This document shows, piece after piece, positions 7,334 through 52,312 of a stretch of DNA of 57,082 nucleotides. This DNA comes from an uncultured Candidatus Saccharibacteria bacterium. GTDB lineage: Bacteria; Patescibacteriota; Minisyncoccia; UBA6257; GWB1-50-10. How positions within the stretch are numbered: the first letter of the stretch is position 1; every line of letters starts with the position of its first letter. The stretch is from NCBI GenBank assembly GCA_964366055.1, contig CAYISE010000001.1, positions 1 to 57,082 on the forward strand, given 5' to 3'. A model generated the notes under the pieces. That model did not search any database, was not told where the DNA came from, and was given only the letters and a program-made list of their open reading frames with translations. Position numbers and translations under genes: made by a program.

Positions 7334-7400
7334 TATTTTTATGATAATTCACAATTGATACGTAATGCAACCTAATTTTGGATTATCACCCATGTATCTC

Positions 7401-7561
7401 CCCGCCGGCGCTTCACCCGAAAACACGCTGTGTCAAATTCCCCAGGGAATTTGGAGAAAAGCAATCCCATTGCTTTTCTCCTCTCGGCCTCGCTCTCTCG
7501 CTTCGCTCGAACCATGCCCGCTTGGCCTGCGAGACGGTTTTCTTGGCGAAGCGCCGGCGGG
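7401..7561. repeat. GC-rich structured element with 14-bp perfect terminal inverted repeats (MITE/REP-like or structured RNA)
   Basis: CCCGCCGGCGCTTC (7401-7414) is the exact reverse complement of GAAGCGCCGGCGGG (7548-7561). There is an internal 13-bp hairpin GGAGAAAAGCAAT-CCC-ATTGCTTTTCTCC (7453-7481). It shares TCGGCCTCGCT, GAGCGAAGCGAG (reverse complement) and TGCCCGCTTGGCCTG with the element at 35640-35885. Confidence 0.7.
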
Positions 7562-7649
7562 AATATAATTCAAGATGATTGAGACAACAATTGGTCAATT
7601 TATCAAATAGCTTGAAAAAATAATTAAAGGGTCTACAATCAAAAACATT

Positions 7650-8606
7650 ATGGCTGAAGAAATTAGGGGAAAAAAGGTCTGTGTTATCGGGGGCGCCGGT
7701 TTTTTGGGCAGTCATCTCGTGGATTATCTCGTGGAAGAAAAGAACTGCGAAGTGCTGGTGCTGGATAATCTAATCTCCGGGCTCAAAAAACATATCAATA
7801 AAAAGGCGGAATTCGCCTGGTATGACATCCGCGACGACGAGCACGAACTGATAGGCATCCTGAAGAGCCACGGAATAGGGTACGTCTTCAACTACGCGGC
7901 CGAGCCGTACATCCCGGAGGGATTTGAGCGACCGAAACATTTTTTCATAATCAACGCTTTGGCTGTTTTGAATGTCCTGAATGCCTGCCAGAAAGCCAAC
8001 GTGAAGAAAATCCTGCAGGTGAGTTCCGCCGAGATCTACGGGGATATGAAAGGCAAGATCAAGGAAAGCGATATGGTGGTGGCCCACTCCACCTACGGCG
8101 TCTCCAAAATGGCGGCGGACGGGCTGGTGCAGGTGCGCTGGCGGGAAGGACAAGTGCCAGCCATCGCCATGCGGCAGTTCAATTGCGTGGGTGAACGAGA
8201 AACTCACGAATACGTCATTCCGGAGATTGTGAGCCAACTGGCCCAAGGCCCCATAGTCCATTTGGGTAACAACAGCTTCCGTGATTTCCAATATGCCGGC
8301 GACGCCGTCCGGATGGCAACGGAACTTTTGGAGAAGGGCGAACCCGGCGAGGTTTACAATATGGGATCGGAAGAAGGTATCCAGATATACGATTTGGCGA
8401 ACCTGATCGGAAAACTGATGGGCTACGAAAAGATTGAGATCGTGACCGAACAAAAAAGAGTGAGGCCGTGGGAAATCTGGCACCTTCAATCGGATAATAC
8501 CAAGTTATATTCGATAATCAGCTACCGCCCGAAAACAAAACTTGAGGAAGCTTTGAAGAAAACCATCAAATACTTCCGGGATAACGCCGGAAAATGGGAT
8601 TTCTAG
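7650..8606 (+). CDS. NAD-dependent epimerase/dehydratase (extended SDR)
   Basis: 318 aa. GGAGFLGSHL Rossmann motif and catalytic YGVSK (YxxxK). Confidence 0.8.
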   Translation: MAEEIRGKKVCVIGGAGFLGSHLVDYLVEEKNCEVLVLDNLISGLKKHINKKAEFAWYDIRDDEHELIGILKSHGIGYVFNYAAEPYIPEGFERPKHFFIINALAVLNVLNACQKANVKKILQVSSAEIYGDMKGKIKESDMVVAHSTYGVSKMAADGLVQVRWREGQVPAIAMRQFNCVGERETHEYVIPEIVSQLAQGPIVHLGNNSFRDFQYAGDAVRMATELLEKGEPGEVYNMGSEEGIQIYDLANLIGKLMGYEKIEIVTEQKRVRPWEIWHLQSDNTKLYSIISYRPKTKLEEALKKTIKYFRDNAGKWDF

Positions 8607-10863: not shown

Positions 10864-13316
10864 TATTTTTTCAGGGTATCACAGACGTAAATCTGCCGCG
10901 AGCCCTCGTGGACGGAATCAAAACAAATCCGCGCGCCGTCGCGGTTAAAGCGGGGATGGAGGTCGGCCCTCAAATTGCTCAAATCCCAATCGTCCCTCAC
11001 TCCGTATTCTTGAGCGGGCAAGGAATAAAATTTTCCGATTTCAATTAATCCGCCCGAGGATAAATTGAATAGCATTAGATGCCGATAATGTTCGTTGCCG
11101 GGATAAGTATCGGTCAAAAGCCATTCTCCGTTCGGAGAGAAAGAACAATGGCCGTCTTCCCTGATCAAACCGGCTCCGATTTTTTTAAAATTCCGGGTTT
11201 TGTCCTCAAAAAGCAGAAAGGCGTCACCGCTAATCACCTGCCTTATCCTGCCCGAGACGCGAAATAAACCGTGGTAAACCGGCACGGCAAACTTTCTCAA
11301 TAAACTGCTCGCTCCCGCTCTCGCCGCCACGCCTGGCGGTCTGCCCCAAACCAAAAGTTCATGGTCGCTTTTCCAGGTAAAATGGGAGGCCATTCCGCTA
11401 TCCAGCAAAAGATGAAGCGAGGAACCGTCGCTGTCCGCCGTATAAAGCCGGCTGTACATTCCTCCGTTTTTAAGCCGCCATCGATGAAGAAATGCGAACC
11501 TCGCGCCGCTGGGACTGAAGGTTAAATGGTCAACCCAGTGTTTGCCTTCATTCATTGAATCCAGATGCCGGCGTTCGCAAAGTTTCGCAAGAGATATTGC
11601 CAATCCGCGCTCTCCGCGCTCCAAATCAACAAAATAAATGCCGTCATCCTTCGGTTTATCCTCCGATACGGACGGGTCCTTGACGCCCTTATAACCGTAG
11701 CCCTCGCGCGCGTCATTCAACCGCGAGAAGTTTAAAGAAAGAGCGCGGCGGCCGTTCGAATGAACGGCATAGATTGGAAAGGGAATAATTTTTCTTTCTC
11801 CCGCGGCAATGTCAAAAATAACGGAAACGAAGCGCCCATTTTGAAGGTCATTGAAAATTATTTTCCGATTATAATCCGGTCCCAGCCATTGGAGCATGGA
11901 ACCCTGCTGCCAATTCCAGGCGCGGGTCTCGGCTATTCCGTTAAAATGACCGGCCTCCGCGGGTCTGAAAAAACCGATTCGCGCGATTTCTTTCCCGTCG
12001 GGCAGACGATTGATAAAATCGGCCTCGTGAGCCAGTATTTTCCCGCCAGCCATGTCCCACGGACATTTATCGTAGTAGCCGAAAAAATGATGCTTGCCCA
12101 TTGTGCTGAAATTTATCCGAACATCCTTATATTCTGAATTAATGCTTTTAATTGCCGTTAAGATGCCATCGGCGTCTTCTCTATAACTCCATTTCGCAAC
12201 CGTCCGCAGAGAATTTTCTCTGCATCTTTGAAGAAGTGCGGCATCAGTTGCGAGTTTTTCCATATGACCCGCCAAAGCATTTACATCGCCGAATTCGTAT
12301 ATAAAACCGCAACCACTATCGGCAATCAAATCCGGGGCGGTGCCCACCCTATCCGATATGATGAAGGCGATTCCAAAATTCATCGCCTCGTTCACTTGTT
12401 TCGGCGACGGGTCAAATTCCGACGGGAGCAGAAGAATGTCCGAAACGGCGTAATAAACTGGTATCTCGGATTGATTCTTGAATCCAAGGAAATAAATGTT
12501 CTTGATGCCGCGCTCGCGAACATATTTCTCAAGCGCTTTTCTGTCCTCGCCGTCGCCGACGAAAAGAACGTTGAATTCCGTATTTTCGCGCAACAGTTCG
12601 CAGGCCTTCAGAATATCAAAAGTCCTTTTCCGTTTCATCAGTTTGCCGATAAATATGAAAGTCGGCGCTTCCAGATTCTTAATTCCGATAGATTTTTTCA
12701 GTTCGTTTTTCTTCAATTTCAACTCCTCAAACTTCCGGCCGAAAAAATCGTTATCCACGGCGCACGGGAAGAAAAAGAGCTTCTCCTCCGGCACACCGTA
12801 GTGCGTGAAGAATTCCTTATTGAGCCGGTAGCTGTACAAAAAAGCCGGTATGGTCTTGAACAAATTTTTCAAGACCAATAATTTGACAAGATTCTTCATG
12901 GTTCCGTTCCGCTTCCCCATATTCGCCTCGCCACGCAGTATAATTTTCGCGCCGGTGTACCAGCGCGTGAAAAATATGAGCCACGAAGTAACGGTCGTGT
13001 ATCCGTGAATAAGCGCCGCGTCGTATTTATTTTTCCTTAATTCGCCGACGATTGACGGATTAATCTGGCCGAAAAAAGATGTTCCGGGTTTGGAACTGTA
13101 GTTTTTCAAAAGAACATACTTATAACCATCAAGAAGCGGCACATCCCACTTGACCTTCACGCCAAGTTCTTTATCAAACCCCGCTTCGGAAATACCGAAG
13201 TCCCAGCAATAGTAAACCGTCACGTCCAGCCGCGGATCTTGAGCTAGATACCGGAAAAGCGGCGCCTGATACTGGATTGGGTGAGAAGCAACAATAGCCA
13301 GTTTATATCTTTTCAT
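10863..13316 (-). CDS. fusion protein: N-terminal GT4 glycosyltransferase plus C-terminal TolB/oligogalacturonide-lyase-like beta-propeller
   Basis: 817 aa. Residues about 1-390 look like GT-B (LPSEFDPSPKQVNEAMNFG). Residues about 400-817 carry propeller-like repeats ending in LRADLHPRFNRDGARICFDSVHEGSRQIYV, a pattern I associate with TolB-like/PF14583-type propellers. Confidence 0.6.
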   Translation of the reverse strand: MKRYKLAIVASHPIQYQAPLFRYLAQDPRLDVTVYYCWDFGISEAGFDKELGVKVKWDVPLLDGYKYVLLKNYSSKPGTSFFGQINPSIVGELRKNKYDAALIHGYTTVTSWLIFFTRWYTGAKIILRGEANMGKRNGTMKNLVKLLVLKNLFKTIPAFLYSYRLNKEFFTHYGVPEEKLFFFPCAVDNDFFGRKFEELKLKKNELKKSIGIKNLEAPTFIFIGKLMKRKRTFDILKACELLRENTEFNVLFVGDGEDRKALEKYVRERGIKNIYFLGFKNQSEIPVYYAVSDILLLPSEFDPSPKQVNEAMNFGIAFIISDRVGTAPDLIADSGCGFIYEFGDVNALAGHMEKLATDAALLQRCRENSLRTVAKWSYREDADGILTAIKSINSEYKDVRINFSTMGKHHFFGYYDKCPWDMAGGKILAHEADFINRLPDGKEIARIGFFRPAEAGHFNGIAETRAWNWQQGSMLQWLGPDYNRKIIFNDLQNGRFVSVIFDIAAGERKIIPFPIYAVHSNGRRALSLNFSRLNDAREGYGYKGVKDPSVSEDKPKDDGIYFVDLERGERGLAISLAKLCERRHLDSMNEGKHWVDHLTFSPSGARFAFLHRWRLKNGGMYSRLYTADSDGSSLHLLLDSGMASHFTWKSDHELLVWGRPPGVAARAGASSLLRKFAVPVYHGLFRVSGRIRQVISGDAFLLFEDKTRNFKKIGAGLIREDGHCSFSPNGEWLLTDTYPGNEHYRHLMLFNLSSGGLIEIGKFYSLPAQEYGVRDDWDLSNLRADLHPRFNRDGARICFDSVHEGSRQIYVCDTLKK

Positions 13317-34634: not shown

Positions 34635-35585
34635 TTATGAGTGCGTTTCTTTATACCAGGCCACAAGTTTTCTTACGCCATCAGTGTACTTGGTCTTCGG
34701 CTCCCAACCTAGAATTTTTTTGGCCTTCTCAATATCGGCAAAGGTTTGAAAAACGTCACCGGGCGGCATCGGCATATTGTTTATAATCGCCCTTTTGCCA
34801 GTTGCTTCTTCCAGTGTCGCGATCATCTGGTTCAAGGTAATGGCTTCCGAGCCGCCCAGATTGATTATTTCAAAACCGAAATTCTTGTTCAAACAAGCAA
34901 TGATACCGTCAACAATGTCGTCAACGTAAGTGTAGTCGCGTCTGGAATTGCCGTCGCCATATTTGTTTATCGGCTTGCCGTTCAAAATATCCCTGACCAT
35001 CGTAAAATGAGCCATATCCGGCCGGTTCTTCGGCCCATAAACCGTGAAAAATCTCAAGCAGACGATGTTCATTCCGTAAAGGTGGTGGTAGTTATAGCAG
35101 AAAAGTTCGTTGGCTTTTTTGGTGGCGGCGTAAGGGCTGATCGGATAATCAACGTTGTCTGTTTCCGAGAAGGGAACTTTTTTATTGTTGCCGTAAATGG
35201 ATGAGGATGAACCGAAAATGAAATTATTAACCTTGTAACGTTTGCAGACCTCCAAAAGATGAAAAGTCCCGATTATGTTATTGACGCTAAAACCCTCCGG
35301 GTCGTCCAGAGAAGCGCGGACGCCGGCCTTGGCGGCCAGATGAATCACCGTATCAATGTGATTTTCAATAAAAATCTTCTCCAAAGCGTTGTGATTGGTT
35401 ATGTCTTCAACAATGCAGGTAAAGTTCAAATTCTTTTGAAACGGGGTGATATTCTGCTTTTTTATGTCCGGAGAATAATAACTATTGAAATTATCCAGAC
35501 AAATTACCTGATAATTTTCCTTCAGCAAACGGTCGCAAAGATTGGAACCGATAAATCCCGCGCCACCGGTAACGAGTATCTTCAT
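34635..35585 (-). CDS. NAD-dependent NDP-sugar epimerase, UDP-glucuronate 4-epimerase-like
   Basis: MKILVTGGAGFIGSNLCDRLL...LDNFNSYYSPDIK, and YAATK. The track ORF extends to 35822 from a TTG through a GC-rich repeat. The ATG at 35585 gives the canonical SDR N-terminus. Confidence 0.8.
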   Translation of the reverse strand: MKILVTGGAGFIGSNLCDRLLKENYQVICLDNFNSYYSPDIKKQNITPFQKNLNFTCIVEDITNHNALEKIFIENHIDTVIHLAAKAGVRASLDDPEGFSVNNIIGTFHLLEVCKRYKVNNFIFGSSSSIYGNNKKVPFSETDNVDYPISPYAATKKANELFCYNYHHLYGMNIVCLRFFTVYGPKNRPDMAHFTMVRDILNGKPINKYGDGNSRRDYTYVDDIVDGIIACLNKNFGFEIINLGGSEAITLNQMIATLEEATGKRAIINNMPMPPGDVFQTFADIEKAKKILGWEPKTKYTDGVRKLVAWYKETHS

Positions 35586-35639
35586 AATGCTAAATTTTAC
35601 GGCTGTCTTGAATACTTTGTCAAACAATCTACCCGGACG

Positions 35640-35885
35640 CGCTATATTTTGCGCCCGCTCCCCGCCCGACCGAATGGCTTCGGTTATTCGGGCAGGTCGG
35701 CCTCGCTCGAGAGAGCCGAGCATTCCGTGGGGCAACTCTCGGAATTCCGCTTGGCTTGGTCTCCGAGCGAAGCGAGGAGCAAGCGGAATGAGAGTGTAGG
35801 TCGCCGCTGGCCGCTGGAGCAAGCGGACGACCGGTGCCCTCAGGAATGCTCGGCTCTCTCACCGTGCCCGCTCGGCCTGAAAACG
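35640..35885. repeat. GC-rich hairpin-rich element, same family as 7401-7561 and 51850-51975
   Basis: There is an 18-bp perfect inverted repeat: GAGAGAGCCGAGCATTCC (35710-35727) against GGAATGCTCGGCTCTCTC (35842-35859). A nested hairpin is GCCCGA-C-CGAA-TGGC-TTCG-GTTAT-TCGGGC (about 35664-35690). Shared motifs are CCGAGCGAAGCGAGG, GCCGCTGGAGCAAGCGG and GTGCCCGCTCGGCCTG. Confidence 0.7.
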
Positions 35886-37819: not shown

Positions 37820-37921
37820 GTTCCTAAAGTATAGCAATAAAATAAAACCTCGCCAAACCAAAAGCTTTTTCCCGGGGGCTTTTGGACCGATTATACGCTA
37901 TCGGGAAACTTCATACAATCT

Positions 37922-38679: not shown

Positions 38680-38697
38680 AATCAAACTAACGGCGTA

Positions 38698-38738
38698 GTG
38701 AAACACAAAAACCGCCAACGGCGGTTTTTGTGTTTCAC
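38698..38738. terminator. strong hairpin, probable intrinsic (bidirectional-type) terminator downstream of the PG-binding surface gene
   Basis: GTGAAACACAAAAACCGCC-AAC-GGCGGTTTTTGTGTTTCAC has a 19-bp perfect stem with T-runs in the 3' arm. It lies 15 nt below the stop at 38753. Confidence 0.65.
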
Positions 38739-38752
38739 TCATTATTTAAGAA

Positions 38753-39689
38753 TCAGCGGCCGAGGAGTGAATTAATCTTTGCTCGCGTCTTGGGGCCAAG
38801 AGTGCCATAACCGACAACGCCGGGAGAGGCTATCCCATATTTCTCCTGGAATTTGCCCAGCGCTTTTTTGGTTAAGCCGCCAAAGTAGCCGGTGACCAAT
38901 CCTTCCGGATAAACCCCTTCGTTCTTCAACAGATTTTGAAGAGCCGTCACATCGCCTCCCTTTGACCCGAGAGAAAGGGGCTTGGTATAGGAGCCCGAAG
39001 ATGGAACAGCGGCGGATGGCGCGACCGAAGGGGTCGCAACTTTCTTGGACACTTGGAGAACAGCCAGATTTTCCATCAAAACCTTCAGATTGGCCTGAAT
39101 TTCAGCAACGGTTTTAGGTTGAGCGTAAGGCAGGGCCTTTGAGACGGCTGATGTAGCCGGGACGGCTGGCGTAGCCGGAACCGCCGGAGTTACAGTCGGA
39201 ACGGCTGGCGTAGCTGGCACAGCGGGAGTAACAACTGACACCCCACCCCCCCCACACCCGCCCCGAAACACCACCACCGCCGCCTCCTCCTCCTCCACCA
39301 CCACCACCCGAAACCGGATTAGTACAGGTATCGCTCGTAGGAGTGAGCGTAAGCGTCTCGGTTCCGGTTGAAGTCAGAGTTACTTCCGAATTTCCGCTAG
39401 AGCACGTAAACGTGCCCAAATTGTTGCCCAACATTTTCCTGTCCAGAGACCTGACCGTTATTGCGGACCCGCTCAACATATTAAAGCTCACCGAATCGCT
39501 CGCTACGGAAAAACTTGAAACACTCCCGCCCACCACGGTCAAATTAATGTTCAGTGAATCAATATGAATAAGAGCGTTCTCCGAAAAAACTATATCGTTG
39601 AATGCTGCCAAGGCCGAAAGAGGAGCGCTAAAAACCAGCGCCAAAGCAAGAAGGAAAACCGCCAATGGATAAATTATTTTGTTTTGCAT
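38753..39689 (-). pseudogene. secreted surface protein with C-terminal coiled-coil + PG_binding_1 module, split by a 1-nt frameshift beside a G8 tract
   Basis: ORF 39114-39749 has a signal peptide from the ATG at 39689 (MQNKIIYPLAVFLLALALVFSAPLSALA), a beta-rich domain and a poly-Gly run. ORF 38753-39307 has (TPAVPA)n, a helix, and LSLGSKGGDVTALQNLLKNEGVY...GYFGGLTKKALGKFQ. The two overlap in different frames. Removing one G from the run at 39246-39253 joins them into a 311-aa protein. Confidence 0.7.
39246..39253. repeat. homopolymer C8 (G8 on the coding strand) at the frameshift site
   Basis: Read directly: ...gaca cccc a cccccccc acacccgcccc... It is preceded on the coding strand by a 39-nt (GGN)13 tract encoding poly-Gly. 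Confidence 0.9.
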
Positions 39690-39783: not shown

Positions 39784-40803
39784 CTACTCGTTCTTGATGC
39801 AGAAATAATTCCACGTCAGCGTGAGAGTCGTTGTGCCGTGAATTACTCCGAAGTTCGTCGCGGTTGAAGTGGTATAAGTGCTCGTTGCCATCAATCCGGA
39901 ATTGGCGTCAGCGGCGGAAACGAGACAGACCGGCGCGGCGGTATATGTCGCGGCAAACGCTACGGTGGACGAGGAATGTCCGCTACTCACAGTCGTGAAA
40001 GAACCGACGGTATCCGTAGAAGCCGCGCTAACCGATGCTGTTCCATCGCCCGCTGTCGGAACGGTACTGCTGGAAACAAGCTGGCCGGCAAAATAGATTC
40101 TTCCGGTTCCTCCCTGAAGGACGAGCGTTGATGTTCCATTCGTGGAACCAACCATCACATAGTTAGGAGTCGCGTTGTTTGCAATACTCACTACTTTCCC
40201 GTTCGTCGCGCCCGTCGCGATGTTCACGGTCGTCTGGCCGGTGCCCGTACCGATACTCACGGTATTTACGCCGGAACTCTGACCCACTTTCAGCAATCCT
40301 GTCTGAACCGTACCGCCAATCGTAATCGTGCCGCTTGTGGTGGAGGTGCCAAAATTATACGTCGTGGCTCCAGCGCCATCCATCACGAAATTTCCCGTGC
40401 CGACATAAAAATTCAAAGACGACGTGCCATTCGTCGTCCCGATTGTCGTGAGATTAGGAACCGCGCCGGTGGCGATATTGACTAACTTCCCGTTTGTCGC
40501 GCCCGTCGCGATATTCACGGTCGTCTGGCCGGTGCCCGTGCCGATACCCACCGTGTTCACGCCGGTGCTCTGACCTACCGTGAGCAGGCCCGTCTGGGCC
40601 GCGCCGCCGATCAAGATGACTCCGCTCGTAGTGGAGGTGCCGATGGAAAACGTTGAGGTGGCCACCCCGTCTATGGAAATATCACCGCCCGTTGTGAACA
40701 CTCCTAAACCTAATGTTAAAGCGGCTTGCACGGAAATGATTCCCAAGAGCAATCCGCCCAGAACAACGCCGCTCAAAATTGAATATTTTTTGATTGTTTT
40801 CAT
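39784..40803 (-). CDS. secreted Gly/Thr-rich repeat protein (beta-helix or adhesin-like surface protein)
   Basis: 339 aa. Signal peptide MKTIKKYSILSGVVLGGLLLGIISVQA and two 97-aa tandem repeats containing GTGTGQTTVNIATGATNGK. Confidence 0.7.
   Translation of the reverse strand: MKTIKKYSILSGVVLGGLLLGIISVQAALTLGLGVFTTGGDISIDGVATSTFSIGTSTTSGVILIGGAAQTGLLTVGQSTGVNTVGIGTGTGQTTVNIATGATNGKLVNIATGAVPNLTTIGTTNGTSSLNFYVGTGNFVMDGAGATTYNFGTSTTSGTITIGGTVQTGLLKVGQSSGVNTVSIGTGTGQTTVNIATGATNGKVVSIANNATPNYVMVGSTNGTSTLVLQGGTGRIYFAGQLVSSSTVPTAGDGTASVSAASTDTVGSFTTVSSGHSSSTVAFAATYTAAPVCLVSAADANSGLMATSTYTTSTATNFGVIHGTTTLTLTWNYFCIKNE
40090..40671. repeat. 2 x 291-nt tandem duplication inside the 339-aa surface protein gene
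   Basis: GTCGCGCCCGTCGCGAT(G/A)TTCACGGTCGTCTGGCCGGTGCCCGT occurs at 40205 and 40496, a period of 291 nt. Protein residues 45-141 align with 142-238. Confidence 0.85.
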
Positions 40804-40963
40804 TGTTTTTTGTACTTTATCCTGTTTTAACTTACGACCTTTATTTTTTTATTATTTTTATTATTTTTTACACAAATCCCACCCGACCTTTTAAGCTCGC
40901 ATCTTTATTAAATATAGCAGATTACCAATCTTCTTGTTTGTGGATAACATCAGTAACACCAAA

Positions 40964-40991
40964 CCCCGCCAGTCCATATGGACTGGCGGGG
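40964..40991 (-). terminator. intrinsic terminator downstream of the 1140-aa surface protein gene
   Basis: CCCCGCCAGTCCA-TA-TGGACTGGCGGGG has a 13-bp GC-rich stem. On the minus strand it is followed by TTTGGTGTT. It lies 34 nt past the stop at 41025. Confidence 0.7.
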
Positions 40992-41024
40992 TGGTCTGAT
41001 TATTCGCTATCAGAAAACCGGATG

Positions 41025-50923: not shown

Positions 50924-52312
50924 TCAACTATTTAAAATCTCTCCTAGAATTTTCAAAGCGCGGTTTAATTCTTCTTGCGACGTCATTTTACCAAAACTGA
51001 AACGCAAACTCCCCCTTACCCTTTCCGGAGAAAGACCAAGCGCTTGCAAAACGTATGACGGGGAATACGAACGAGCCGAGCAAGCCGAACCGGATGAAAC
51101 GGCCACGCCGGCCAAGTCCAGTTTAATCAGCAGGTCACCCGCAAATTCCGTGGGAAAATAAATATTCAGAATGTGCGGCGTTTTTGAGTCGCCGTTTGTC
51201 TCCGCTTCCGGATAGGATTTCTTGAGGCCGCGCCAGAAGTGATTTTTGAGTGACTCAACTTTTTTCGCGTTTCCTTTTCTTTCTCTCACGGCTAATTCCG
51301 CCGCCTTCGCAAAGCCGACGATTAAAGGAACGTTCTCCGTGCCGGAACGGAGGCCGAACTCCTGGCCGCCGCCCGTTATTATCGGAGCGATAAAATCGCT
51401 TCCAAAATTTTGATTTTTCACGAACAGCGCGCCGATTCCCTTCGGCCCGTAAATCTTCTGGCCGGAGAGCGTCATTAAATCCACGCCTAGTTTCTTAATA
51501 TCGCAGTCAAAATAATTTAAGGCCTGGGCGGCGTCGGTGTGCACCAGCGGATAACCGCTGGAATTTTTAATTTTTAATTTCCAATTTCTAATCAATTCGG
51601 AAATTTCTGCAATGGGCTGGACGCTCCCGATTTCATTGTTCACGTACATCACCGAGACCAAAATCGTCTTTTCATCCAGGGCTTCCTTTATTTTTTTAAC
51701 ACTAACCACTCCGTTTTTATCCACCGGAATATAAACCACTTCCGCTCCGCCTTTTTCCAAATCCCGCGCCGTCTCCAAAACCGATTCGTGTTCAATGCTA
51801 CTGATAATTATTTTGGGTTTTAAAAAAATATTCGGATTAGGCGGCGCGATTTGTTTTGAGCGGAATGCCTCGGAGTCGCGGCGAGCTTGGTCGCGAGCGG
51901 AGCGAGTGTCGCCGCGACGAGAGCCAAGAGAGTCGCTCGCCGCTGGAGCGAGCGAACTCTCGGTTCCGCGAGAAATAAAACGCGCCGCCTTTACCACGCC
52001 CCGCAGAACCAGATTGTTCGCCTCCGTCGCCGAGCCGGTAAAAATGATTTCTCTGAAATCCGCGTTAATGGCTTTCGCAATCGTCTCCCGCGCCTTATCC
52101 ACCGCGCCGAGCGCCGTCTGGCCGAAAGAATGGAGCGAGCCCGGATTCCCGAACTTATCGCTGAAATACGACTCCATCGCCTCCACCACCGCCGGGTCCG
52201 CCGGCGTAGAAGCGGCGTAGTCCAAATACACCCCCACACCTTTTTGATGTTGAGTATTGTTTGAACTTTGAGAGTTATTTAAGGTGGGGGGGTAAATCCT
52301 TCTGGGTTTCAT
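50924..52312 (-). CDS. cysteine desulfurase (NifS/IscS, class V aminotransferase) carrying a roughly 50-aa insertion
   Basis: 462 aa. YLDYAASTP, FTGSATEANN, SSIEHESV, the PLP-Lys region LSGQKIYGPKGIGAL and the active-site region SSGSACSA. Between LVLRGVV and KIIISS there are 59 aa, where E. coli IscS (recalled from memory) has 8. Confidence 0.85.
   Translation of the reverse strand: MKPRRIYPPTLNNSQSSNNTQHQKGVGVYLDYAASTPADPAVVEAMESYFSDKFGNPGSLHSFGQTALGAVDKARETIAKAINADFREIIFTGSATEANNLVLRGVVKAARFISRGTESSLAPAASDSLGSRRGDTRSARDQARRDSEAFRSKQIAPPNPNIFLKPKIIISSIEHESVLETARDLEKGGAEVVYIPVDKNGVVSVKKIKEALDEKTILVSVMYVNNEIGSVQPIAEISELIRNWKLKIKNSSGYPLVHTDAAQALNYFDCDIKKLGVDLMTLSGQKIYGPKGIGALFVKNQNFGSDFIAPIITGGGQEFGLRSGTENVPLIVGFAKAAELAVRERKGNAKKVESLKNHFWRGLKKSYPEAETNGDSKTPHILNIYFPTEFAGDLLIKLDLAGVAVSSGSACSARSYSPSYVLQALGLSPERVRGSLRFSFGKMTSQEELNRALKILGEILNS
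51850..51975. repeat. GC-rich hairpin repeat embedded in-frame in the cysteine desulfurase gene
   Basis: Hairpins are GTCGCGGCGA...TCGCCGCGAC (10 bp) and GAGAGT-CGCTCGC-cgctgga-GCGAGCG-a-ACTCTC. It shares CTTGGTC.CGAGCG.AGCGAG and GCCGCTGGAGCGAGCG with 35750-35830. Confidence 0.7.

Follow-up and report, generated by a model that had tools for sequence, protein, structure and literature searches.

A branched palindromic repeat of Patescibacteria in the cysteine desulfurase gene, probably a selfish element read through as a protein loop

The contig CAYISE010000001.1 (assembly GCA_964366055.1) of an uncultured Candidatus Saccharibacteria bacterium, 57,082 nt in length and hereafter called the window, carries a cysteine desulfurase gene (iscS) with a GC-rich palindromic element inserted in frame. 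The open reading frame spans 50924-52312 on the minus strand, and the corresponding database protein (P0001) starts at 52225. When P0001 is aligned to solved cysteine desulfurases, its residues 1-81 match residues 13-94 of the best chain and its residues 139-432 match residues 101-385; 57 residues thus stand in place of a 6-residue loop of the solved enzymes. The first-pass annotation of this DNA, made from the sequence alone, had counted 59 residues for an 8-residue loop. The insert is real and this count was essentially right; the peptide quoted at the time is present in the translation and both of the hairpins quoted with it are present in the DNA. The catalytic motifs on either side, SGQK with the pyridoxal phosphate lysine and SGSAC with the catalytic cysteine, are both intact, as had been stated. 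The Pfam Aminotran_5 match to P0001 is split into two stretches, and no Pfam domain is matched by the 57-residue, low-complexity segment. In an AlphaFold2 model of P0001 (32 homologs; predicted template modelling score 0.80) most of the core reaches a predicted local distance difference test score (pLDDT) of 86-96, while residues 85-133 stay below 50 and are mostly coil, with a single short helix at 94-99. The insert peptide is best seen as a predicted disordered loop between helix 66-84 and strand 138-142. Among the tryptic-type peptides encoded by the insert is, e.g., GTESSLAPAASDSLGSR.

At the DNA level the insert is an element of about 140 bases with a GC content of 0.63, against 0.484 for the contig, which agrees with the GC richness noted before. 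It takes the form of a Y, in which a closing stem encloses two hairpins; the enclosing inverted repeat is 27 nt long and 81% complementary (Table 1). Folded as the coding strand, the iscS region has an energy of -85.9 kcal/mol (z = -5.6); for the non-coding strand the value is -100 kcal/mol (z = -7.3), and on both strands 0 of 200 shuffles were as good. The top two of the most structured 160-nt windows of the whole contig are the iscS insert region and the one at 35701, and the folding z-scores of the tested elements range from -5.3 to -7.7.

Table 1. Position of the host gene, of the insert with its structural parts and of the element copies in the window.
Feature	Position	Strand	Basis or score
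Cysteine desulfurase gene (IscS/NifS-like, Aminotran_5), host of the insert	50924..52225	minus	open reading frame, upstream to 52312
Segment without counterpart in solved homologs (P0001 residues 82-138)	51812..51982	minus	structure-database alignment
Element copy 1 (iscS), full-length R2 match, sense = coding strand	51843..51981	minus	97.4 bits R2; 72.1 bits R1
Outer closing stem, arm toward gene 3' end	51839..51865		inverted-repeat scan and folding
Outer closing stem, arm toward gene 5' end	51964..51990		inverted-repeat scan and folding
Hairpin 1, 13-bp stem, conserved loop CCAGC translated ..APAA..	51928..51961	minus	sequence and folding
Hairpin 2, conserved base CUCUCG/CCGAG, variable stem	51868..51925	minus	sequence and folding
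Hairpin 2 apex of copy 1, family motif CTCGCTCCGCTCG, then ACCAAGC	51894-51906 (motif)	minus	motif search
Element copy 2, intergenic, between two minus-strand genes	35712..35852	minus	111.6 bits R2; 83.5 bits R1
Composite region with degenerate outer element GGCCTCGCTC[...]ACCGTGCCCGCTCGGCC	35640..35885	plus	R2 and direct reading of the sequence
Element copy 3, intergenic	7407..7560	plus	57.7 bits R2; 32.9 bits R1

Two covariance models of the element were used. R1 was built from three seed copies of equal length, all from other contigs, and R2 was rebuilt from 52 matches, with the window copies included in its training alignment. The metagenome collection of the Joint Genome Institute (JGI) was scanned with a pattern taken from the hairpin-2 loop, and the copies reported here are those among the matches listed, plus those at iscS loci. 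All copy counts accordingly refer to contigs retrieved by a family-derived motif and by iscS look-ups, mostly short metagenome contigs, and do not represent an unbiased census. In the retrieved loci R2 finds at least about 90 copies, up to four per contig and mostly on low-GC contigs. Control loci from other Patescibacteria lineages gave no R2 match, and a search of viral contigs for the family motif returned 0 matches. Four high-GC contigs (L100, L103, L119 and L121; GC 0.60-0.70) have good R2 matches of 44-104 bits, one of which is an in-frame copy in MnmA (L121), and the family may extend beyond low-GC genomes of the Paceibacteria type.

In the window itself R2 (filters off) matches exactly three copies, all of full length, and the next-best match reaches 16 bits. 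The homology between the iscS insert and the region 35640-35885, as claimed in the first-pass annotation, is borne out, at a level well beyond chance, by R2 and also by R1 with its seeds from elsewhere (Table 1). The 35.7-kb region and the iscS insert have the same Y shape and common loop sequences, with different stem sequences; the similarity of the two peptides, also noted in that annotation, follows solely from the conservation of the loops in the DNA. Copy 2 is nested, in opposite orientation, in the hairpin-2 apex of the degenerate outer element. Copy 3, which is absent from the first-pass annotation and was revealed by an inverted-repeat scan of the window, has its outer stem arms at 7395-7417 and 7545-7567, two hairpins in place of hairpin 1 and the motif CTCGCTTCGCTCG at 7497-7509. 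Each of the three copies has one occurrence of the 13-mer CTCGCTNCGCTCG, which is found nowhere else in the window, against an expectation of 0.31 even with one mismatch allowed. Together with the copies from metagenome contigs, this third copy provides the further genomic copies that were to be looked for.

Each of the two intergenic window copies precedes the best promoter-like site of its downstream gene (for copy 2 the site is 35623-35594), and a terminator role was rejected for them, there being no T-tract after the stem. The genes directly downstream, 7650-8606 (plus strand) and 34635-35586 (minus strand), both start with a Rossmann GxxGxxG motif and have a promoter-like site between element and gene; from this motif alone they look like NAD-dependent epimerases/dehydratases.

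The architecture is the same in most low-GC matches: a variable outer stem, hairpin 1 with the loop CCAGC, the segment CUCUCGG, hairpin 2, the segment CCGAG and the return arm, adding up to an element length of 135-150 nt. The consensus of the hairpin-2 apex reads YYCCUCGCUUCGCUCGGRRACCAWGC, with the motif part imposed by the search pattern, and the conserved loops of the family are CCAGC and CUCGCUUCGCUCG..ACCAWGC. A plain MAFFT alignment of 49 copies yielded no RNAalifold structure, as the stems vary in length, and realignment by the covariance model was used instead. In this model-guided alignment (A8) 88.5% of the cells are paired, against 53.6% with shuffled partners and 41-50% with partners slid by 1-3 columns, and double changes are present at 44 of the 45 pairs. 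The pairing is almost purely Watson-Crick: G-U accounts for 1.8% of the cells on the sense strand, less than A-C mismatches with 3.0%. Since G-U is the rarer of the two, this is not the pattern expected of selection on a folded sense-strand RNA; it points to stem complementarity being kept at the DNA level. At the base of the outer stem, about 40% of the copies have ..GCTC(G/A) as the left-hand and TCGCT.. as the right-hand motif (24 and 25 of 54, with 1-2 expected), and the hairpin-2 apex consists of the same two motifs joined the reverse way round; these motifs may mark a target or cleavage site.

A search of Rfam 15 over the window produced only tRNAs above the gathering scores, and for the two elements tested at E <= 10 all matches were far under the gathering score of each family, none of them credible. 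Two candidate interpretations of the fold were rejected. A hammerhead-type ribozyme, suggested by the three-way junction, has neither the required CUGANGA/GAAA core nor an Rfam match here. A kissing interaction of loop 1 (AGCG) with the apex of hairpin 2 (CGCU) was dropped, as L001, L085 and copy A of L170 have a UUCG/GAAG tetraloop apex with loop 1 unchanged.

The history of the iscS copy can be followed in Patescibacteria IscS homologs (clade names as given by the sources: Minisyncoccia, Paceibacterota, Liptonbacteria, Wolfebacteria). These are 376-525 residues long, and many have an insert at exactly the same loop. In the DNA of ten insert-bearing iscS genes, one of them present on two contigs, a full-length model match lies at the same position each time. 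Sense matches of R2 at this site are found on L001, L083-L086, L206-L208 and L210; none was a seed of R1 or a match of the motif scan, and L001 and L083-L086 entered the R2 training alignment via the R1 search. The full-length match on L210 belongs to a peptide that looks different at the protein level ('class B'). On L209 the match is on the opposite strand (93 versus 16 bits), and among all copies of the data set the one nearest to it is again from iscS (81%), which makes an inversion in place the simplest account. The gene order Cob_adeno_trans-MgtC-IscS-SIMPL-HtrA-ClpB is kept in six of the iscS loci. Among the ten orthologous sense copies 86% of the cells are paired (67% when shuffled), with double changes at 36 of the 45 pairs against 19.6, and the insert peptide differs wherever the stems differ, as in ESSLAPAASDSL, GRLFSPAEKSGL and GRSSAPAAEDVM.

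In the alignment of orthologs that had been suggested, the loop is short in the solved homologs, in more distant homologs and in many aligned Patescibacteria homologs. The insert is reduced to its outer flanks or lost in P0042, P0050, P0092, P0061, P0002 and P0007, the first four of which keep truncated remnants at the site. Because orthologs with down to about 53% IscS identity share the site, the insertion is old; the event itself predates the divergence of the carrier lineages, and the copy has been passed on, reshaped and sometimes lost. The insertion is thus ancient and not recent, the same element being present at the same site in eleven other iscS genes, from other assemblies. According to the first-pass annotation, a homologous loop in orthologs would speak for an ancestral protein feature. 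Such loops do occur within the clade, and the insertion nevertheless stands, because distant orthologs and all solved structures are without the segment and because the same DNA element is also found between genes and, in both orientations, within other genes.

Other loops of IscS orthologs hold different hairpin-forming inserts (L085:10752-10821 and 10956-11025; L005:10944-11013; L209:10650-10719), with peptides that include ISDFGFRNSDFG, HPEWSEGSLRGDSSFAGRRTQNN and PDPESSSGRHDYMSVQDDK, so that iscS is colonised by several palindromic families. In further homologs the very loop of the window insert is occupied by peptides of other hairpin-like classes.

Besides IscS, translation and Pfam searches identify in-frame copies in MnmA (at two sites), FolD, LigA (NAD-dependent DNA ligase), Lnt (apolipoprotein N-acyltransferase) and a ComF-type phosphoribosyltransferase, and it is these copies that back the resemblance to the Rickettsia palindromic elements (RPEs) proposed in the first-pass annotation. 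The copy at MnmA site 1 is in sense orientation, those at MnmA site 2 and in FolD, LigA, Lnt and the ComF-like gene are antisense. All of them are read through, with the Pfam domains intact on either side of the insert. Intergenic copies have, over the whole element, 1.5 of 3 frames free of stops in sense and 0.8 of 3 in antisense orientation; the core is stop-poor, and frame-preserving insertions are therefore not rare events. Dispersal is documented by elements that are 87-100% identical between flanks whose identity is at random level (L127/L116, L125/L129/L198, L170/L122 and two on L189). In L126 and L189 the apex of hairpin 2 harbours small unrelated hairpins as insertions. Where the neighbouring genes are co-directional, intergenic copies share their orientation in 22 cases and oppose it in 6.

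Three further observations concern the surroundings of the copies. Downstream of a SecF-like gene, L170:1395-1925 contains a tandem duplication with flanks of 31 nt and 54 nt that are 100% identical; its two element copies (1443-1575 and 1668-1805) have different bases at most positions of the stems, compensated in every case, and a threefold repeat is formed by the final 19 nt of the gene. This pair may be a real duplication, a cassette exchange or a mis-assembly. In L116/L185/L189 and in L136/L145 the element is 99-100% identical, with one flank identical and the other unrelated, as would result either from rearrangements that broke at the element or from chimeric assembly at a repeat. A GC-rich hairpin module, roughly CCCGCCTGCGCCGAAGCTTCGGCGGGCAGG, stands in or next to element copies (window 35655-35695, L098:~400-440, L175:~330-370) and also appears at the peptide level, as LPAQACLRRQAG, within the P0055 IscS insert.

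The insert is best explained as an old copy of a probably selfish and structure-dependent repeat of palindromic form, which behaves like an RPE and is read through as a loop. In this scenario a dispersed, non-coding, GC-rich palindromic repeat of ~135-150 bp with a three-way junction would move or duplicate selfishly in Patescibacteria, and one copy would have landed in the cysteine desulfurase loop between an alpha-helix and the next beta-strand. Three properties could have let this copy survive: a length that preserves the frame, a stop-poor sequence without stops in this frame, and a site at which a loop is tolerated. The copy would then be transcribed and translated together with iscS as a disordered loop of roughly 50 residues, and would have been inherited vertically across a Paceibacteria-type clade, with loss or truncation in some lineages and inversion in one. 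In the course of this inheritance the stems would have changed by paired compensatory substitutions while the loops stayed constant, and complementarity may have been kept via a hairpin-dependent copying or transposition step or via template-switch ('quasipalindrome') correction. The element in iscS is presumably translated rather than removed and, we infer, selfish and not of use to the host. Full-text searches with an incomplete coverage of the literature brought up no account of palindromic or MITE-like repeats (MITE, miniature inverted-repeat transposable element) inside the coding sequences of bacteria of the candidate phyla radiation; this absence of evidence agrees with the first-pass annotation, which knew of no equivalent, and the family is widespread and apparently undescribed.

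A number of points weigh against this explanation. The copy counts are biased by the motif-based retrieval, and the pair counts come from an alignment fitted to the model and are somewhat inflated, although by a degree that leaves a very large margin. No transposase was identified, in a window that was not annotated for transposases as a whole. Conserved terminal inverted repeats were not identified; from copy to copy the outer-stem arms vary in sequence, with no more than covariation between them. At the ends of recent copies no convincing target-site duplication was seen, with no empty sites compared. The three copies in the window are only ~60% alike and give no sign of recent activity in this genome. 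Translation of the iscS insert is itself a matter of inference and not of observation. The 22-to-6 co-orientation hints at strand-dependent selection, and the pervasive covariation, the conserved loops and the deep retention at one site also fit a functional structured RNA or DNA.

A bolder reading, possible but unlikely in our view, regards the element as a structure-defined genetic module. Its three-way junction with the loops CCAGC and CUCGCUUCGCUCG/ACCAUGC would be recognised, as single-stranded DNA or as RNA, by a hypothetical Patescibacteria protein that copies, inverts, exchanges or diversifies it. An active mechanism, specific for site and structure and with TCGCT as target or cleavage motif, fits the nesting at the apex, the L170 pair and the Watson-Crick pairing. 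Alternatively, the fold could be a functional RNA carried in mRNAs.

The related scenario of a functional structured nucleic acid, be it an RNA module (a binding or processing site, mRNA stabilisation) or a single-stranded DNA three-way junction that a structure-specific protein recognises, with the iscS copy retained for its useful structure and the peptide as a tolerated by-product, appears improbable. It is compatible with a mobile origin, and thus does not exclude the selfish repeat. All four helices covary, with two loops and the junction conserved over at least about 90 copies, and compensatory change persists at the orthologous iscS site over deep divergence; the scarcity of G-U relative to A-C mismatches is nevertheless unlike selection at the RNA level. 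The model discriminates strongly between the strands (111.6 versus 16.3 bits) and the intergenic copies are mostly co-oriented with their neighbours, whereas inside genes both orientations are found, so that the mRNA has either strand. The L170 pair, which differs between 100% identical flanks only by compensated stem changes, would suit a structural function. By contrast, many lineages have lost or truncated the iscS copy, both intergenic copies of the window lie upstream of the best promoter-like sites and are without a terminator-like tail, and no Rfam match is credible.

It is very improbable that the segment is a lineage-specific protein loop selected for protein function, e.g. as a partner-binding surface, with the palindromic DNA being incidental. 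Retention in many orthologs and the recurrent peptide motifs AARxISRGT, APAA and SETFRSK would be in line with such a loop, but these motifs fall on the conserved loops of the DNA and on the base of the stem, and wherever the stems covary the peptide changes too. Moreover, the same DNA element is intergenic and is also present in five other unrelated proteins, in either orientation and with different peptides; one ortholog carries it inverted, close relatives are without it, and the segment is predicted to be disordered. Removal of the segment as an intervening sequence (intron or intein), leaving a mature enzyme without it, is more doubtful still. A strongly folded segment at a precise site in a conserved gene could suggest it, yet a search down to E <= 10 gave no match to any model of a group I or group II intron or of a ribozyme, the segment is too small and of the wrong composition for an intein and by eye has no intein-type splice-junction residues, and all 12 iscS copies as well as the 6 copies in other genes are in frame and stop-free, which would be unneeded if the segment were removed. 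Repeats can cause mis-joins, and some contigs do share an identical element with only one flank; an assembly or binning artefact with a chimeric join inside the gene nevertheless has a negligible chance, since no fewer than 12 independent assemblies, made in different projects, have the same insert in frame at this codon position.

Among known systems the RPEs come closest to the selfish repeat proposed here. The peptide encoded by an RPE is tolerated at fold-compatible positions (reviewed in PMC10969869). Both are palindromic repeats of ~100-150 bp, dispersed in intergenic DNA and in frame in unrelated housekeeping genes, in hosts with small, reduced genomes. The present hosts, judged by the names given to homologs, are Patescibacteria and not Rickettsiales, however, so that a sequence relationship is not expected; the copies are found in both orientations within genes, and a branched fold (three-way junction) whose loops are conserved and whose stems covary freely contrasts with the RPE consensus, which is conserved along the whole length. 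This fold is what distinguishes the element and likens it to structured RNA families or to recombination sites recognised by structure. By analogy, the element works like an RPE; as the comparison is one of behaviour and not of sequence, we do not file it in the sequence families RPE-1 to RPE-10. Outside Rickettsia, Ogata et al. and Suyama et al. reportedly described in 2005 protein-coding palindromic repeats of Wolbachia and Methanocaldococcus jannaschii. Those repeats share the palindromic form, the coding potential and the location in open reading frames with the present family and differ from it in hosts and sequences.

In the MITE-like repeat bcr1 compensatory changes are known in the predicted structure. 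MITEs in general resemble the element in being small, non-coding and multi-copy, with strong secondary structure and occasional in-frame fusions (PMC10969869). Unlike MITEs, the element has no conserved terminal inverted repeats, only the GCTC(G/A)/TCGCT base motifs recurring in ~40% of the copies; no parent insertion sequence was identified, none having been sought; and it is GC-rich in mostly AT-rich hosts, while typical MITEs are AT-rich. Repetitive extragenic palindromic (REP) sequences and REPIN elements, which RAYT transposases mobilise, are thought to move as single-stranded hairpins. The element has in common with the REP/REPIN-RAYT system hairpin repeats with co-evolving arms and a short conserved motif at the hairpin base (~40% of the copies). 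REPs are extragenic, 20-40 nt long and equipped with a GTAG or CGTC head (PMC3733652), whereas the present element is branched, measures 135-150 nt, enters genes and is without a GTAG head. With integron attC sites it would share a folded single-strand structure that is conserved while the stem sequence is free, in parallel with the covarying stems and the Watson-Crick pairing of the present family. This is a mechanistic analogy only: there is no integron context, R/L boxes were not noticed, and copies are found inside genes and nested.

If true, the selfish-repeat explanation adds a second, independent case of the Rickettsia phenomenon, in streamlined Patescibacteria genomes of roughly 1 Mb, which are reduced genomes of a very different kind. 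Palindromic repeats would there enter essential genes, such as iscS, and be read through as loops of the protein. It would account for odd, variable, low-complexity inserts in proteins of these organisms, which in candidate phyla affect gene calling as well as protein modelling and phylogenies based on alignments. With at least about 90 copies under compensatory change, the family could serve as a model for the upkeep and movement of hairpin DNA in hosts that apparently have few classical transposons, and the covariance model can be used for an element census in complete genomes.

The window contains further repeats. A 29-nt palindromic motif, ATCTTTACGATGCCGGGAATCGTAAGATT, occurs in three copies at 37918, 38444 and 38655 and represents a different repeat family; a perfect 20-bp hairpin is located at 38697-38739. 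Short GC-rich tandem repeats with a period of 9-39 nt (CACCGCCGCCTCCTCC and similar) are found at 39137-39310, and two direct repeats of 205 nt, 76% identical and with starts 291 nt apart, at 40163-40658. A perfect 30-nt palindrome, ACCCCGCCAGTCCAT/ATGGACTGGCGGGGT, lies at 40963-40992, and the surroundings of 40961 belong to the most strongly structured parts of the window.

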